DNA from: Pseudomonas phage vB_PaePAO1-KEN19
Sequence record: PP456878.1
Reading direction: 5' to 3' (one strand)
Length of the DNA: 64,000 nucleotides
Shown here: one piece after another, positions 2,499-36,307 of the stretch
How positions within the stretch are numbered: the stretch's first letter is position 1
How the letters are laid out: each line of letters begins with the position of its first letter
The notes under the pieces: generated by a model
Databases searched by the model: none
The model's input: only the letters and a program-made list of their open reading frames with translations
Told to the model about the DNA's origin: nothing
Made by a program: the position numbers and the translations under genes

Positions 2499-3740
2499 CT
2501 ATTTAGTTAAGCGGTAGGCTCTTACAAATAAGTCATTATTTAATAGACTTTCTAAAGTATCTTCTAATTCAGTAGCCCGTTTATCTTTACGACGCTGGGG
2601 ACTAAGGAAATCTAAAATTTTATCAAAAATGGTCCACTCATTAGCTAAATCATTTATCAATGAATCAATTACTTTAATGTCATCATCAATTCCTGGTTTT
2701 AGTGATGAGTCCTTTACCCATTTAAGTTGTGCTACTAGATCTTGTTTAATTTTCATTAAACGTTGTCGTTGTTTGTCATAACGTGAACTAATTGGATCAT
2801 ATCCAACTTTTAAATTACCGGCAATGATACCTAGTGTAACAGGTAAACCAATGATCATAAATAGACCTTTGAATACCTCAGCAGTAATATGGCTAGAAAC
2901 AGATTTATATTCACGGTCATTATAATACCGACCTGATTTAGTTAATGCCGTTGCCAGTGGCCTTCCATAACCTAATCGAGTGGCGAATAAATCAGCTAAT
3001 TGTTCATCGCGTTTACGTGATTGAACATCACCAGTTAAATGCGGACGTTGCGCTTTCTTAAATGATGATAGAATGACTTTACGAATATTTCCTTCAGTCC
3101 TATCATTAGCAAACTTCTCATAATCGGCTGGATCAACGTTTTTCTTTAACCATGTTTCATCCAATAATTGAATCTTATACTTATTAGCTTTCCTACCCTG
3201 TAAGATAAGTATACCTTCAGTAAGTGCATAGTTAAGATAGACGTAGTCACCCATTGTAGCCAGTGTTTCCCAACAATGCCCAATTTCATGTAATGTAATG
3301 GCAGTAGCTTCTGCTATACTAACACGGTTAATAGCCGATAATAAACCAATAGATAAACCGACCTTGTATTTAAAAGTTGAAACAGCCTCACCCGTAACTT
3401 TTAAATTTGTTAAATCAATATTAATGAATGTATTGACACCTTGCTCAGTTGCTAAAGTAACTCGATTAATATTGTCAAATTTACTACCAGTATGTCCAAC
3501 TGTAAAGGATGTGTATGCACCACCCATTATACCCTGATCATCCAGGTGTGTAAACTCTATATTCATATTGAGGATCTTAGAAACATCATCACTCAGTGAC
3601 CTAAAATCATTAATATCTATTCTCTGTTGATTATCTAATTTATCACGAATCTTGGTTAGATGTTCTTCGATCAATGGACCTAAGTCACGCTTAACATTCA
3701 CATCTAACACTTCATTAGAGATTTCTATCGTATGTAGCAT
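2499..3740 (-). CDS. putative Zn metallopeptidase, M48/Ste24-like
   Basis: HEIGHCWE (HExxH with a following Glu) resembles the HELGHW motif of M48 peptidases. There is a hydrophobic segment GLFMIIGLPVTLGIIAGNL. Confidence 0.4.
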   Translation of the reverse strand: MLHTIEISNEVLDVNVKRDLGPLIEEHLTKIRDKLDNQQRIDINDFRSLSDDVSKILNMNIEFTHLDDQGIMGGAYTSFTVGHTGSKFDNINRVTLATEQGVNTFINIDLTNLKVTGEAVSTFKYKVGLSIGLLSAINRVSIAEATAITLHEIGHCWETLATMGDYVYLNYALTEGILILQGRKANKYKIQLLDETWLKKNVDPADYEKFANDRTEGNIRKVILSSFKKAQRPHLTGDVQSRKRDEQLADLFATRLGYGRPLATALTKSGRYYNDREYKSVSSHITAEVFKGLFMIIGLPVTLGIIAGNLKVGYDPISSRYDKQRQRLMKIKQDLVAQLKWVKDSSLKPGIDDDIKVIDSLINDLANEWTIFDKILDFLSPQRRKDKRATELEDTLESLLNNDLFVRAYRLTK

Positions 3741-19183: not shown

Positions 19184-19206
19184 TATTTACCTCTTGTATT
19201 ATTAAA

Positions 19207-19227
19207 CCCCTGATCAATGATCAGGGG
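19207..19227 (-). other. hairpin spanning the beta gene stop codon
   Basis: cccctgatcaTTGAtcagggg contains the TGA stop of the beta gene. It is followed by tttaataat and the RBS of the beta-prime C gene. Confidence 0.4.
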
Positions 19228-20137
19228 CATATTCTAATGCAATACCACTACATTCAAGCAGGTGATCAAACATAGCTACTGGGCGAGATCCACCAAATGG
19301 AATCTTTTCACGATCAACTGCAACTGGTACAGATGAAGGTTTTTCTGCTGTTAGCCAAGACTCGATAACCGCAGCATGCGCCAATGGGTTATTAGTTTGG
19401 TCTAAGATTTCAGCAGTCGGACCTGGACCAACTGTACAGTTATATGACCGAGTTTCAGATTCACCGAATGACCGGATAGCTGTTTCTCGACCAGGTGTGC
19501 TAGCCCTATCAGCATTGTTTAACTTAGAAGGTAGACCAAATGGTTGTGTTTTTACAGATGCTGCTGCTGACCAGTCTTCACCAATCTTTTCTAGTAGCAT
19601 CATGTAAAGTGGACCCATTAAGACATTATCTTTAGTTGTTACCCACTTACCAGCTTGATCTCGATAAGATACCTTCCCATAGTGTGGTCGATACTTATCG
19701 CTATTAATTAATTTGTTGACTGCTGCCATTAGATCCACTGGATCATCAACTGGTGCGTAGATATATGGGAATCCATCCATTAGTACTGTTTTAACATGTT
19801 CTGCTGGATTTGGGTGTTCCATCATTTTACTATGCATTGTTGGAGCAATGATCTCATAGAAACCTAATAGTTCTTTAAATGCATAATCAACCCATTGCGT
19901 ATTGCCCATTACACTATTTAGTTGTTGCTGGGTTGGTTTGGCATGTCGATCTAGTCCAGCTTCAACGCGTAGGCGTTGAGCTAGATCTCGTGCAGCTGCG
20001 CCAAAACCATGTTCATAAATTCGACCATAATTTGAACGACGCATGGTTGAACCACCAAAGATAATTAGATCTGCCCTATTACCATTTTCGTCAATAGGCA
20101 TATCTTCATCTTCCATTACCTTACAGATGACGCCCTT
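19214..20137 (-). CDS. non-virion RNAP beta subunit C-terminal piece, exon 2 (KGVICKVMEDEDMPIDENG...)
   Basis: The frame is open upstream of the listed Met. KGVICKV...EDMPIDENGNRADLIIFGG aligns with E. coli beta [31 protein letters not shown]. It joins exon 1 at GGN|KGV. Confidence 0.8.
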   Translation of the reverse strand, partial: KGVICKVMEDEDMPIDENGNRADLIIFGGSTMRRSNYGRIYEHGFGAAARDLAQRLRVEAGLDRHAKPTQQQLNSVMGNTQWVDYAFKELLGFYEIIAPTMHSKMMEHPNPAEHVKTVLMDGFPYIYAPVDDPVDLMAAVNKLINSDKYRPHYGKVSYRDQAGKWVTTKDNVLMGPLYMMLLEKIGEDWSAAASVKTQPFGLPSKLNNADRASTPGRETAIRSFGESETRSYNCTVGPGPTAEILDQTNNPLAHAAVIESWLTAEKPSSVPVAVDREKIPFGGSRPVAMFDHLLECSGIALEYAPDH

Positions 20138-20441
20138 CGTTATGTTCAGGTAAGTTCGCTACGCTTACCCCGCCTCTCGTATTGCAGGCAGCTGCATGTC
20201 ACCATGCAGACCAGACTATATCTTAACCTTCACCCTAGGTGGTCAGGTCCCTCCCATTTCCACTCGCTTGAGTGTACTCCGCGTAACCGGATAGTCGTTG
20301 AACGTTCAATCCATTTCTGGAAAGCTTCGCTGCTGATTGTCTCATTGAGATGTCCCAGCAATTAGAGAGGATTTACTTGACTCTTTCGAGATCAAGCAGG
20401 CAATTTGACAATATCCATTCCTGAGAGATGGATGGATATTA
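20138..20441 (-). mobile_element. group I intron (about 304 nt, no ORF) in the RNAP beta gene
   Basis: Read on the minus strand: P aattgctggga, Q aatcagcagc, R gttcaacgactatc (plus strand 20290-20303), S aagatatagtctgg (plus strand 20211-20224). P9 hairpin ctgcatg-GTGA-catgcag. The 3' end is ...ctgaacataacG. The intron begins TAA immediately after the exon AAT. Confidence 0.8.
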
Positions 20442-21638
20442 ATTACCACCATGAAAATCAGTCATCTTGAAAGCACCAGCAGGCATCTTTTGGGCTTTGT
20501 AAGTTACTTCGACTCGCCATTCATCTAGTGGGTCTAGTCGATAGAATCGAGATAGTTTACGGACATTATCAGGTTGAGGTAGGAACATCTGTGCAGTTAC
20601 AATAAGACGTTCAAATTCCTCAGTGATATGTAGATCATCTTTACGACGTGCTAATAGACCACGATAGATCTTTAATAGTTCTCGATAATAACTGCTAAGA
20701 TGAGTATGATATTTAACTAGTTGTGCATCCATTCCTGTTGGAGTAGGGGATGGATTTACACGCTCATCACGCCAAATATCAATATCAATAACCTTCGCAC
20801 CAGGTGTGCCAATAACAGCTCTATCGAAAGTTCTATCTAGTGTACGAAGTGCCCTAGGAGTCATCTCGGCAGGAGCTAGATCATCATCATGGTCACGGAT
20901 GGCGAAGATTACACCATCTGGTCGGATAACATCGCCAATGTCTGGGAATGGTTTATAGACCTTATCATCGCCATACATGTTTAAGAAGAAAGCTTTCCTA
21001 CCAGCATTAGCTACAGCCGTGCTATAACTAGTTGGCATCATCCTTTTAAGGAAATTCTTATTAGCTACGAATCCATCTTCAATGGTACCAGCGGCAGATA
21101 GGAATACAACATTAGCATTAACACCCATCCCTAAAGTACCGTCTTTCTTAACTGCACCAGACTGTGCAATCACTGTGTCTTTAGAGAACATTTCATTTGG
21201 GGCAATGGTTTCCCACACTTCTCGATTCTTTACAAGTTCATAACCAAAGTCTTGGTGATGACTCATGTACTCGGGAACATGTAAGACACCAATGGTTTTA
21301 TATTTGTCAAAATAGTTTTCGTAGATAATAGTTGTTACCGGGTTAGATCTAATACTGTCTTTACCAATACCCGTTGGATATTTTCTAAGAACATGTAGTA
21401 CACGACAATCCTCAGGAAAACGAACATCATGTGTATACTTGGCATACTCTAATTCAGCACCCGTTAGGAAATAACGCGATTCATTTCCATTTACTTCTGG
21501 TGCCTGGCCAATATGTGTTACAAACATAGCACCCCGTGCAGATGAGGTAGTGCCATACCAAGGATCTAAACCAGTATGCCCTAATAGGGTTAGATCAATT
21601 TCACGTTTACCTAGTTCAGCCATTTTGTTTATCACCAT
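20442..21638 (-). CDS. non-virion RNAP beta subunit C-terminal piece, exon 1
   Basis: ARGAMFVTHIGQAP resembles the beta NMQRQAVP region. It ends ...MTDFHGGN, directly before the intron. The alternative start MAELGK lies 15 nt downstream of the listed ATG. Confidence 0.75.
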
Positions 21639-21761
21639 TAATTAGACAAGATGCAGTACTACTATATTTCTTATTTGCGCTGTTTTTAGATATAGCCTTT
21701 TGTAAGACTTCAATGTCTGGTATCACCAATCTCATACCTCCTGTTTACTAATTACAAATCA

Positions 21762-34045: not shown

Positions 34046-34264
34046 TTACGACTTCAACCATTCTTCTAATGGCGGTAAATACTTCTCATGCGCCCAGTTA
34101 ATAATTGTTTCTACAACAGGACCCTGTAATTCAAGGTTACCTGAGATTTCATGTGGTTCATCAATAGATAGAACCCATGTATGTGGAGCAATGCGTTCAG
34201 TTGCTTTGGTTAAATACACATCAGGCATTAACGTTAAATTCAATTGATCGCCGTCAAAATCCGC
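34046..34264 (-). CDS. non-virion RNAP beta-prime N-terminal piece, exon 3
   Basis: Begins GCG GAT TTT GAC GGC GAT CAA, encoding ADFDGDQ. This is the universal Mg-binding NADFDGD motif. The Asn codon is supplied by exon 2. Confidence 0.75.
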   Translation of the reverse strand, partial: ADFDGDQLNLTLMPDVYLTKATERIAPHTWVLSIDEPHEISGNLELQGPVVETIINWAHEKYLPPLEEWLKS

Positions 34265-34757
34265 CGTTATGTTCAGTATGGGTCGTTAATCCATACCCGG
34301 TAGTATAATTACCACATGATAATTACCACCTGCTGCATGTCACCATGCAGACCAGACTATATCTTCACCCTTCCTTTCGGAGTGGGGTGTCTCCCATTTC
34401 GAGTCACTTGACCCTACATCCTATTTCTAGGACCGGTGCACCTGATACCGTAATAGTCGTTGAACCTTCTCCTATTCCTAAATGGAATGTTACGGAGCTT
34501 GGCTGCTGATTGGCCCTACCTAATCTTTTTCAAACCTTGGCTTTGTCTTTCGACTCGCAGTGGTAGATTAGTTTAACAGGATATCCCAGCAATTAGAGAG
34601 AACTCACCCCAATGATTACTCACTGGGGGAACTAGACTTGATTAACTTAATAAGGTATTTATCAAGCACTTCATATTCAATTTTAAATGAAGCCGGATCA
34701 AAGACGGACACTACTCCGTTTTGTTCCATTGTTTTTACCTTATTTAGTTAGTTGTCC
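34265..34757 (-). mobile_element. group I intron (about 493 nt) splitting the NADFDGD codons
   Basis: Same P, Q, R, S core and P9 (ctgcatggtgacatgcag) as the other two introns. The 3' end is ...ctgaacataacG. It has an extra ~190 nt in the 5' part carrying a 37-codon ORF. The P5 region is enlarged. Confidence 0.7.
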
Positions 34758-34865
34758 ATTAGGCGCTTTAAGGCATAATACTGACATGCTGATTGAATTA
34801 TCATTAATGTCATCTTTTACTTTAGTAATAAAGAATTGTTGAGTAGATCCACGTTGAAGGGTCGG
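34758..34865 (-). CDS. non-virion RNAP beta-prime N-terminal piece, exon 2 (36 codons)
   Basis: PTLQRGSTQQFFITKVKDDINDNSISMSVLCLKAPN aligns with E. coli [33 protein letters not shown], which directly precedes ADFDGD. Confidence 0.7.
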
Positions 34866-35170
34866 CGTTGTGTTCAGATAAGTTCGTTAAGCTTATCCCG
34901 TCTATTAATAATAGACAGCTGCATGTCGCCATGCAGACCAGACTATATCTTCACCTTTGGCATTACCCAGTAAGGTGCTCCCCATTTCGAGTCACTTGAC
35001 TCTACTCTACTCGGTTCACTTTCGTGCCTTTCGATAGTCGTTGAACGTTCAATCCATTTCTGGAAAGCTTCGCTGCTGATTGTCTCATTGAGATGTCCCA
35101 GCAATTAAAGGAGTTTTGTCGAGTAATATTTCTATTACAAGGAAACCATTTAGTATTAATATACAAATTA
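34866..35170 (-). mobile_element. group I intron (about 305 nt, no ORF), near-identical core to the beta-gene intron
   Basis: aattgctgggacatctcaatgagacaatcagcagcgaagctttccagaaatggattgaacgttcaacgactatc is shared almost verbatim with 20138-20441. It ends ctgaacacaacG and starts TAA after the exon AAT. Confidence 0.75.
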
Positions 35171-36307
35171 ATTTCGGTGAAAAGTGCAACCCATTCCTTT
35201 ATATGGTGCGGCCTCTGCAATTAACTCTTTAAATAGATCAGCGATGATTTGGTTATATTGAAGTACATTCTCATATACAAATGAGAATGCTTCACGAGTT
35301 GTCATGTTAAACTTAGCTTTTAACTTGTTAGTTAGATGATACTTTAATAATTGACAACCTACCCCCCAAGGGATATGTAGTTCATCATAATCATGCGGGT
35401 CACTAATAGAAGTGATTACTGCACGTGCCGTAGCGTTGAGACGAGCACCAAACATGTGACGCCGAGCAAGACCAGGCTTTTGAGCAATTCGTGATTTTGC
35501 GTAGATCTCGTAGAACTGGCCATATAGTCTTAGTCCTCGCATAGTCCTATTCTGAGCTTTAATTGGACTAAGTGGTACAGATGATGCATCAATACTAGCG
35601 AAGGTTAAGGTAGCATCAATTGCTGCTTCAATTGGTTTATCTAAGTAAGTACCAGATGTGGTTGATTCTGCTACGAAACAGAGTTTAGAAGGAACTGGTA
35701 AATATTTAGGGAATAACTTATCTTTATTCTGAGCAACGAATTGAGCGAATTCGGATTTATTATTAGAGATAATATTTGCATCTAGTAGGAATTGGAAGAT
35801 CTCATTGAAATTATCAATGAAGTGATTTAATCCTCTTTCAAATCCTCGATGCAGTAGCCTATCTACTTTCCTGCGTGTTTCCTTAGAACCAATAGATTCT
35901 ACATCGTATCGATAAGAAGTATCAGTTAGATATGCTAAGAAATCGAATTCTTTAGTTACTAGATATCCGGTTAGCATAATGATTAAACGTGGGTTAATTA
36001 GGCTACGTACATGTTTTGGTGTACGAACCCACATTGATGGTTCGATAGGGCGGCTAGAAGTATTGACAACTGGAGTATTACAAATATCACAGATTACTCC
36101 GAGTTTATGTGCGTCTTCGATTGCTCGACAATCACAGCTTACACTACTTTCAATTGCTTCTGAATCTTGGAAATGAGAATAGAAATGTCTATCAAATTCT
36201 TCTTTCTCATCTGAGTTACTCGTATTGTAATCATTGGCATAAATTCGTTTACCCGTAAATTGATCATGAACTTCATTATGATCAACAACTTTGGCATAAA
36301 GACCCAT
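35171..36307 (-). CDS. non-virion RNAP beta-prime N-terminal piece, exon 1
   Basis: Zinc-binding CDCRAIEDAHKLGVICDICNTP. RRHMFGARLNATARAVITSISDP resembles beta-prime GKRVDYSGRSVITVGP. It ends ...FHRN. The probable start is ATG MGLYAK with caggag SD (36307), not the listed TTG at 36334. Confidence 0.75.

Follow-up and report, generated by a model that had tools for sequence, protein, structure and literature searches.

An interrupted gene for an RNA polymerase subunit

The locus described here raises the question of how a single RNA polymerase subunit is made from two separate open reading frames, and at which nucleotides the two are joined. The window (64,000 nucleotides of Pseudomonas phage vB_PaePAO1-KEN19, PP456878.1) is DNA of a phiKZ-type Pseudomonas jumbo phage. 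When its minus strand from 19200 to 21700 was used as a megablast query, 46 Pseudomonas phiKZ-like genomes covered the query, and PA_ZH1 and KTN4 were 100% identical to it. The minus strand of the window corresponds to the plus strand of phiKZ. On this strand, the list of open reading frames contains the gp71 ORF (20439 to 21638), whose C-terminal end reads AFKMTDFHGGN followed by a stop codon, and the gp73 ORF (19214 to 20116), which extends in frame upstream to 20137 as KGVICKVMEDEDMPIDENG...; homologues of phiKZ gp74 and gp75 lie downstream of the gp73 ORF. An earlier note on this DNA, made by a model from the sequence alone, had read both flanks as in-frame beta-subunit sequence, with MTDFHGGN on the upstream side, and this reading is borne out on both sides. 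The two exons were delimited as follows:

20445 to 21623, minus strand: exon 1 of the nvRNAP beta C-terminal subunit gene (phiKZ gp71 part), with its ATG at 21623-21621 and its last codon, GGU (Gly393), at 20447-20445
19214 to 20137, minus strand: exon 2 (phiKZ gp73 part), with first codons AAG GGC GUC (Lys394-Gly-Val) and its stop codon at 19216-19214

The ATG of exon 1 is the start annotated in KTN4, PA7 and phiKZ, and the exon aligns to residues 1-393 of PDB 7OGP_C. Exon 2 aligns to residues 394-700 of the same chain and matches the Pfam family RNA_pol_Rpb2_6 (E = 1.6e-6). Once joined, the exons encode a protein of 700 aa, collinear both with PDB 7OGP_C and with homologues whose genes are uninterrupted, and phmmer matched residues 1061-1129 of bacterial beta as well as the nvRNAP chains of phiKZ and other jumbo phages.

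In the literature, gp71-73 is one subunit of a five-subunit non-virion RNA polymerase (PMC4666361, PMC8287921). A stoichiometric 74-kDa gp71-73 polypeptide was purified from phiKZ-infected cells in 2015 and identified by mass spectrometry (PMC4666361), its cryo-EM structure was solved later (PMC8287921; PDB 7OGP chain C), and the recombinant fused protein is active. Within its beta C-terminal domain, K386 and K394 are the conserved double-psi beta-barrel lysines (PMC8287921). As the ribozyme of the window and that of phiKZ are only one nucleotide and a loop ORF apart (see below), the evidence for the 74-kDa polypeptide (PMC4666361) applies here too. We conclude that positions 20138 to 20444 on the minus strand are a group I intron within the catalytic HGxKGV motif of an nvRNAP beta-like gene.

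The intervening sequence has the architecture of a group I ribozyme

A cmscan search placed a match to Rfam RF00028 at 20192 to 20420 on the minus strand, scoring 84.2 bits against a gathering score of 50 (E = 5.9e-20) and covering the whole model (positions 1-253 of 253). The covariance-model check proposed in the earlier note therefore returned a match far beyond chance and, together with the continuity of the exons, upholds its central claim that a group I intron splits the nvRNAP beta gene in the active-site motif. The elements of the intron and their sources are:

20138 to 20444, minus strand: group I intron of 307 nt, ORF-less allele, starting AAUUAAUAUCC and ending CUGAACAUAACG (Rfam RF00028)
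20442 to 20447, minus strand: 5' strand of P1, GGU/AAU, with the 5' splice site after U20445 (MFE and ensemble folds)
20439 to 20441, minus strand: in-frame UAA, codon 2 of the intron; the unspliced product ends in HGGN and stop (sequence and ORF end)
20410 to 20440, minus strand: P1 extension hairpin, AAUAUCCAU / AUGGAUAUU, with a loop of only ~13 nt (fold and phiKZ comparison)
20399 to 20404, minus strand: internal guide sequence AUUGCC (3' strand of P1), directly upstream of P2 (folds)
20376 to 20396, minus strand: P2 hairpin, CUUGAUCUC-GAAA-GAGUCAAG, with a GNRA loop (fold)
20310 to 20371, minus strand: P3 5' strand (20371-20365), P4-P5-P4' (20360-20331) and the P6/P6a hairpin (20321-20310) (Rfam alignment, fold)
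20248 to 20303, minus strand: 'R' element, P7 5' strand GACUA (20296-20292) and P3 3' strand (20255-20248) (Rfam, fold)
20278 to 20291, minus strand: P7.1, UCCG-GUUACG-CGGA (MFE fold)
20261 to 20274, minus strand: P7.2, CACUC-AAGC-GAGUG (MFE fold; compensatory changes in RNAalifold of four introns)
20211 to 20247, minus strand: P8 hairpin (20247-20227) and 'S' element with the P7 3' strand UAGUC (20218-20214) (Rfam, RNAalifold)
20149 to 20209, minus strand: P9 (20209-20192, GUGA loop), P9.1 (20191-20170) and P9.2 (20169-20149) (fold)
20138, minus strand: terminal guanosine (omega-G), with the 3' splice site directly after it

The unconstrained MFE fold recovered P1, P2, P3-P6a, P7.1, P7.2, P8, P9, P9.1 and P9.2 (z = -2.9), so that the folding into P1-P9 called for in the earlier note was obtained, and through P9.2. 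The core strings that the note had named are likewise present, namely aattgctggga (20363-20353) and aatcagcagc (20338-20329) as the 'P' and 'Q' elements, both of which fall within 20310 to 20371 on the minus strand, gttcaacgactatc (20303-20290) as 'R' and aagatatagtctgg (20224-20211) as 'S'; so are its P9 hairpin with a GNRA loop (CUGCAUG-GUGA-CAUGCAG, 20209-20192) and its terminal G, the last base of the intron being G20138.

An RNAalifold analysis of four related introns, taken from P7 to the 3' end, kept P7, P7.2, P8, P9, P9.1 and P9.2, and in 19 of 45 pairs both sides had changed with pairing kept; P9.1 and P9.2 are among the helices with compensatory changes between related introns. These covariation counts refer to the 3' half of the four-intron alignment, with P1 treated separately, and a whole-intron MAFFT alignment was not used for them because the 5' halves of the PhiPA3 intron and of the second gp55 intron (both described below) aligned poorly owing to insertions. 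Pairing of P10 with the 3' exon appears weak by eye (~2 bp).

In the same RNAalifold output, the four bases that open the 'R' element (GUUC) are paired, in each of the four introns, to GAAC of the conserved 3' tail CUGAACAUAACG (columns 1-4 with 194-197 of alignment A3; 20303-20300 with 20147-20144 in the window). The pairing is invariant except for one change from U-A to U-G, and is thus neither supported nor refuted by these data; it might represent a P9.0-like contact or one that docks the 3' splice site.

Over its last ~84 nt (P7', P9 to the 3' end) the intron shares ~80% nucleotide identity with the T4 td intron (IA2), whereas the 5' halves of the two could not be aligned by BLAST. The td intron has the same P7.1/P7.2 architecture; its endonuclease, I-TevI (GIY-YIG), is encoded in the P6a loop and not in the P1 loop. 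Both introns are inserted in an enzyme gene at a conserved position, the td gene being that for thymidylate synthase. On the strength of P7.1/P7.2 and the td-like 3' domain, the sequence places the intron among the phage IA type (td/nrdB-like subgroup), an assignment made by these features rather than by a formal subgroup classifier.

The exons are joined between GGU and AAG

Four independent lines, namely the PDB sequence, the homologues, P1 and the PhiPA3 intron, agree on the junction GGU/AAG, which yields HGG/KGV. PDB 7OGP_C (phiKZ gp71-73, 700 aa) reads MTDFHGG-KGVICKV, and its sole gap against the product proposed in the earlier note falls at an Asn. This chain comes from a recombinant construct and so reflects the join chosen by its depositors; the join is independently corroborated by the homologues and by P1. 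Only a GGU/AAG join is compatible with K386 and K394 as numbered in the literature (PMC8287921). The motif [HF]GGKGV is found in five of seven uninterrupted homologues (201phi2-1, Phabio, PA1C, Psa21 and RAY), the other two having HGDKGV (LucasX) and AGDKFV (Goslar), and an extra residue at the junction is present in none of the seven.

In both the MFE and the ensemble folds, P1 is formed by GGU/AAU (20447-20442) and AUUGCC (20404-20399), with a U20445.G20401 wobble (pair probability 0.85) of the kind characteristic of 5' splice sites in group I introns. At the other end, all three introns of the window terminate in CUGAACAYAACG, the PhiPA3 intron terminates in the related CUGGACAAAAAG, also on G, and the join after G20138 is the only in-frame one that retains Lys394. 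At the GGU/AAG join the spliced sequence, read as DNA, is expected to be CATGGTGGT followed directly by AAGGGCGTC, so that a split read would run from ...GATTTTCATGGTGGT to AAGGGCGTCATCTG....

The non-virion RNA polymerase beta gene of PhiPA3, which is orthologous, carries an intron (HQ630627 55005-55454; Rfam, 79.2 bits) at the identical codon boundary, GGU/AAA, again giving HGG/KGV. Its junction reads cac ggt ggt before the intron, which ends in g, and aaa gga gta after it; its P1 consists of GGU/UC paired with GAGCC (p = 0.88), with a U.G pair at the splice site. Between the window and PhiPA3 the exon side of P1 is conserved and the intron side covaries (AAU/AUU versus UC/GA). The PhiPA3 boundaries computed here, 55004/55455, are the same as those published by proteomics-guided curation (Fossati et al. 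2023, PMC10449902). The PhiPA3 intron has P2 and the guide-sequence layout in common with that of the window, but it is 450 nt long, its core has diverged and its P5 has an additional insertion.

The earlier note had instead placed the intron at 20138 to 20441 (304 nt), with an AAU/AAG junction and the product HGGNKGV. This join is also in frame and also leaves U at the end of the 5' exon, and its Asn can be likened to the N in cellular HGNKGV. However, U20442 forms a Watson-Crick pair with A20404 inside P1 rather than a splice-site wobble, the product would exceed PDB 7OGP_C and all seven uninterrupted homologues by one residue, the published K386/K394 numbering does not accommodate it, and the orthologous PhiPA3 junction is without any Asn codon. 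We therefore regard the AAU/AAG join as very improbable. With the junction at GGU/AAG, the 5' end given in the earlier note was wrong by 3 nt (the intron being 20138 to 20444, 307 nt), and the motif that it took to be restored, HGNKGV, is in fact HGGNKGV under its own join, one residue too long, the phage-family motif being HGGKGV. Its expectation of an exon-terminal U in a G-U pair of P1 is right for U20445 (with G20401), but not for the U20442 that it named, which pairs with A. Similarly, an in-frame UAA does lie at the start of the intron, as it had said, although as the second codon (AAU UAA) and not the first.

Three other splice sites were considered and rejected. U20441 forms a U.G pair with G20409 in the MFE fold, at the base of the P1 extension; splicing after it gives an out-of-frame join that runs into UAA, and it was also rejected because phiKZ has U in place of G20409 and the U.G pair is thus not conserved. 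By inspection, a 3' site at ACG/AAG is preceded by A rather than G, and one at AAG/GGC would delete K394.

The window carries an endonuclease-free allele of a known intron

The phiKZ gp71/gp72/gp73 locus (NC_004629 63275-66595) has the same gene, insertion site and exon junction as the window intron, and outside the loop its ribozyme differs from that of the window by one nucleotide (G20409 in the window, U in phiKZ). What distinguishes the two is an insertion of ~925 nt in the terminal loop of the phiKZ P1 extension, absent from the window, which contains the 316-aa gp72 with matches to Pfam HNH_3 and NUMOD4. The allele with this ORF was found only in phiKZ, OMKO1 and fMGyn-Pae01, and with a diverged, 81%-identical ORF in FBPa36, while the ORF-less allele occurs in ~45 records (coverage of at least 80%); 201phi2-1, Phabio, PA1C, Psa21 and other distant relatives are intronless at the site.

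The window intron contains no homing endonuclease gene; its sole ORFs, of 43 and 53 aa, overlap with the core of the ribozyme and lack any Pfam match. These small ORFs were rejected as genes on the lack of Pfam signal and because the same 'ORF' recurs in a gp55 intron, as it does only because the ribozyme core is conserved. The absence of a homing endonuclease gene from the window allele makes it a fixed, non-autonomous intron, and the pattern overall is the classical one in which an intron has become fixed in a lineage while its endonuclease gene decays or disappears. The isolation of viable phiKZ orf72 deletion mutants (PMC12676376) agrees with such loss, and the occurrence of the ORF-less allele in ~45 natural isolates is independent evidence that the gp72 endonuclease is dispensable. 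This is the textbook life cycle of homing endonucleases, with the intron fixed genus-wide and its endonuclease gene largely lost, and opens no new question.

The RefSeq record of phiKZ annotates a 36-aa CDS, PHIKZ072.1, in the ribozyme core (2965 to 3075 of phiKZ locus L004, equivalent to ~20235 to 20345 on the minus strand of the window). Similar small window ORFs lie at 20230 to 20361 and at 34943 to 35104, both on the minus strand, and all of these are probably spurious gene calls. By eye, the sequence 'aatggatggatattc' in the 5' part of the PhiPA3 intron (~466 to 600 of locus L009) resembles the 3' end of phiKZ gp72, 'ctggatggatggatatttt', which suggests that a gp72-like endonuclease gene once lay in the PhiPA3 intron and survives there in degraded form.

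Putative introns are also present in virion RNA polymerase genes. PhiPA3 gp210, in the virion RNAP beta gene, has a putative group I intron beside the catalytic residues (Birkholz et al. 2024, PMC11620839), and the virion-RNAP operon of phiKZ has an intron-encoded endonuclease, gp179, which like the PhiPA3 gp210 case is HNH-associated. Introns of the gp210 type lie in the virion polymerase at a conserved Asp pair and carry an active nicking endonuclease with a role in phage-phage competition, whereas that of the window lies in the non-virion polymerase at the HGxKGV motif and carries none.

The window intron is thus the already-known gp71-73 intron of phiKZ minus its endonuclease gene, real and ordinary. 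According to PMC10914365, the phiKZ intron had been predicted when the genome of phiKZ was published in 2002; gp72 has been termed an intron-encoded homing endonuclease (PMC12676376), and KTN4 and phiKZ have been described as differing in their HNH content (PMC4908380); the name gp71-73 itself embodies the intron. What is new here are the exact boundaries of the ORF-less allele, the comparative argument from P1 and the allele census. Nearly all public records of phiKZ-like phages, RefSeq included, show two separate RNA polymerase CDSs at gp71/gp73, and the correct annotation is one 700-aa subunit joined at GGU/AAG. Primers, antisense oligomers, CRISPR guides and transposon screens directed at gp71-73 or gp55 all need these boundaries.

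Two further introns interrupt gp55

Two more group I introns, scoring 86.3 and 78.2 bits with Rfam, were found in gp55, the gene for the N-terminal beta' subunit (34265 to 35170, minus strand):

35171 to 36307, 34758 to 34865 and 34046 to 34264, minus strand: gp55 exons 1 to 3; exon 1 ends in TFHRN at 35171
34866 to 35170, minus strand: first gp55 intron, 305 nt, with its guide retargeted (GAAAU/UA with UGGUUUC)
34265 to 34757, minus strand: second gp55 intron, 493 nt, with no long ORF

Exon 2 comprises 36 codons (34865-34758), and exon 3 starts with ADFDGDQLN from 34264. In the joined gp55, DFDGD occupies residues 417-421, as in the published numbering (PMC8287921); by this numbering and the exon ends, the introns split R-N/P-T-L and N/ADFDGD, the latter being the Mg2+-binding motif. 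PDB 7OGP_A is named PHIKZ055 plus PHIKZ056.1. The gp55 introns (34866-35170 and 34265-34757) are paralogous to that of gp71-73, ~88% identical to it over aligned positions, and each of the three splits a catalytic motif of the same enzyme, in two of its subunits. With three such introns in the nvRNAP genes of the window alone, and with RNAP introns of phiKZ and PhiPA3 published, the description of introns of this kind as rare in the earlier note is unjustified, because both this intron and others in jumbo-phage RNAP genes were already known.

The 74-nt P3-P7 core of the first gp55 intron is 100% identical to that of the gp71-73 intron, and this identity, combined with a retargeted guide, suggests that the gp71-73 intron, or one closely related to it, has recently spread to the new site. 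The first intron is present in only ~7-9 of ~47 phiKZ-like records; phiKZ lacks it, since PHIKZ055 runs through the site. For the second intron, no convincing P1 was found by eye beyond a pairing of ~4 bp (UAAU/GUUA). Its phiKZ counterpart carries gp56, a 334-aa HNH endonuclease, and ~100 nt at the 5' end of the window copy may be a remnant of such an ORF.

Probable production of the joined subunit by self-splicing

Given these boundaries, production of the subunit would begin with an early transcript spanning exon 1, the intron and exon 2, in which the intron RNA would fold into P1-P9.2. An exogenous guanosine would attack after U20445, held in a wobble with G20401 of the guide AUUGCC, and the freed 3'-OH would then attack after the terminal G20138. 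The ligated message (CAU GGU GGU/AAG GGC GUC) would be translated into one 700-aa polypeptide with HGG-K394-GV, in which K394 is the counterpart of E. coli beta K1073. Without splicing, the UAA two codons into the intron would leave a 394-aa fragment minus K394 and everything beyond it, and the truncation that the earlier note had predicted for an unspliced message is indeed what the sequence encodes (HGGN and stop). We consider it very probable that the subunit arises in this manner, by guanosine-initiated self-splicing of the 307-nt group I intron, with GGU joined to AAG and the 700-aa reading frame restored. For the window allele we infer that splicing in vivo is autocatalytic, and production of the nvRNAP can reasonably be taken to depend on ribozyme activity.

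In the literature searched, we found no direct RNA-level demonstration of splicing at the gp71-73 locus. The words 'intron' and 'splice' are absent from the papers on the structure and biochemistry of the RNAP (including PMC4666361 and PMC8287921), and given this silence, an explicit mention in print that splicing gives rise to gp71-73 was found only indirectly (PMC10914365, PMC12676376, PMC10449902). An ONT-cappable-seq study reports that, under the conditions used, evidence for the predicted phiKZ introns was absent; its sensitivity was low, since the known LUZ24 intron appeared in just 0.03-0.9% of reads (PMC10914365).

This negative result bears on two other accounts of the locus. In one, there is no productive splicing, and gp71 (394 aa) and gp73 (~300 aa, from the AUG at 20116) are translated separately and then assemble. 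The GenBank and RefSeq records do annotate two CDSs, the RNAP subunits of jumbo phages are already split in several places, and spliced phiKZ reads were missing from the ONT-cappable-seq data (PMC10914365). Against separate translation stands the single 74-kDa species that mass spectrometry identified as gp71-73 after purification from infected cells (PMC4666361). Moreover, a gp73 starting at Met401 would lose K394-GVICKV, part of the conserved motif, the ribozyme has been kept intact with compensatory changes, and the homologues encode one continuous protein. We hold assembly from two separately made polypeptides to be highly unlikely.

The other account accepts splicing but makes it inefficient or conditional, so that the intron would serve as a throttle or timer on nvRNAP production instead of being a neutral selfish insertion. 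Here the absence of spliced long reads (PMC10914365) and the fusion seen at the protein level (PMC4666361) would both be accommodated, as together they suggest that spliced RNA is scarce at steady state or that its capture was biased. The phage has three introns in two nvRNAP subunit genes, and an ASO directed at the gp72 RBS in the P1 loop had a strong phenotype even though orf72 can be deleted (PMC12571901, PMC12676376). Yet the insensitivity of the ONT study, with the LUZ24 intron in 0.03-0.9% of its reads, weakens the first of these points, related phages without the intron do well, and the first gp55 intron is confined to a minority of isolates, as expected for a neutral parasite. We allow conditional splicing a small chance. 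A broader form of the idea, in which splicing of gp71-73 and of the two gp55 introns together would be a rate-limiting, condition-dependent gate between early transcription by the virion RNAP and middle and late transcription by the nvRNAP, seems slightly less likely still; if true, such a gate would act in a phage that uncouples transcription from translation. Conventional self-splicing at GGU/AAG remains the reading that we favor.

The position of the gp72 RBS is a separate observation. In phiKZ it lies within the loop of the P1 extension, ~25 nt past the 5' splice site (RBS and start at ~1975 to 1990 of phiKZ locus L004; the loop corresponds to ~20419 to 20431 of the window). As an idea only, the strong phenotype of the gp72 ASO knock-down (PMC12571901) may result from the oligomer blocking P1 folding or splicing of the essential gp71-73 mRNA, and not from loss of the nuclease.
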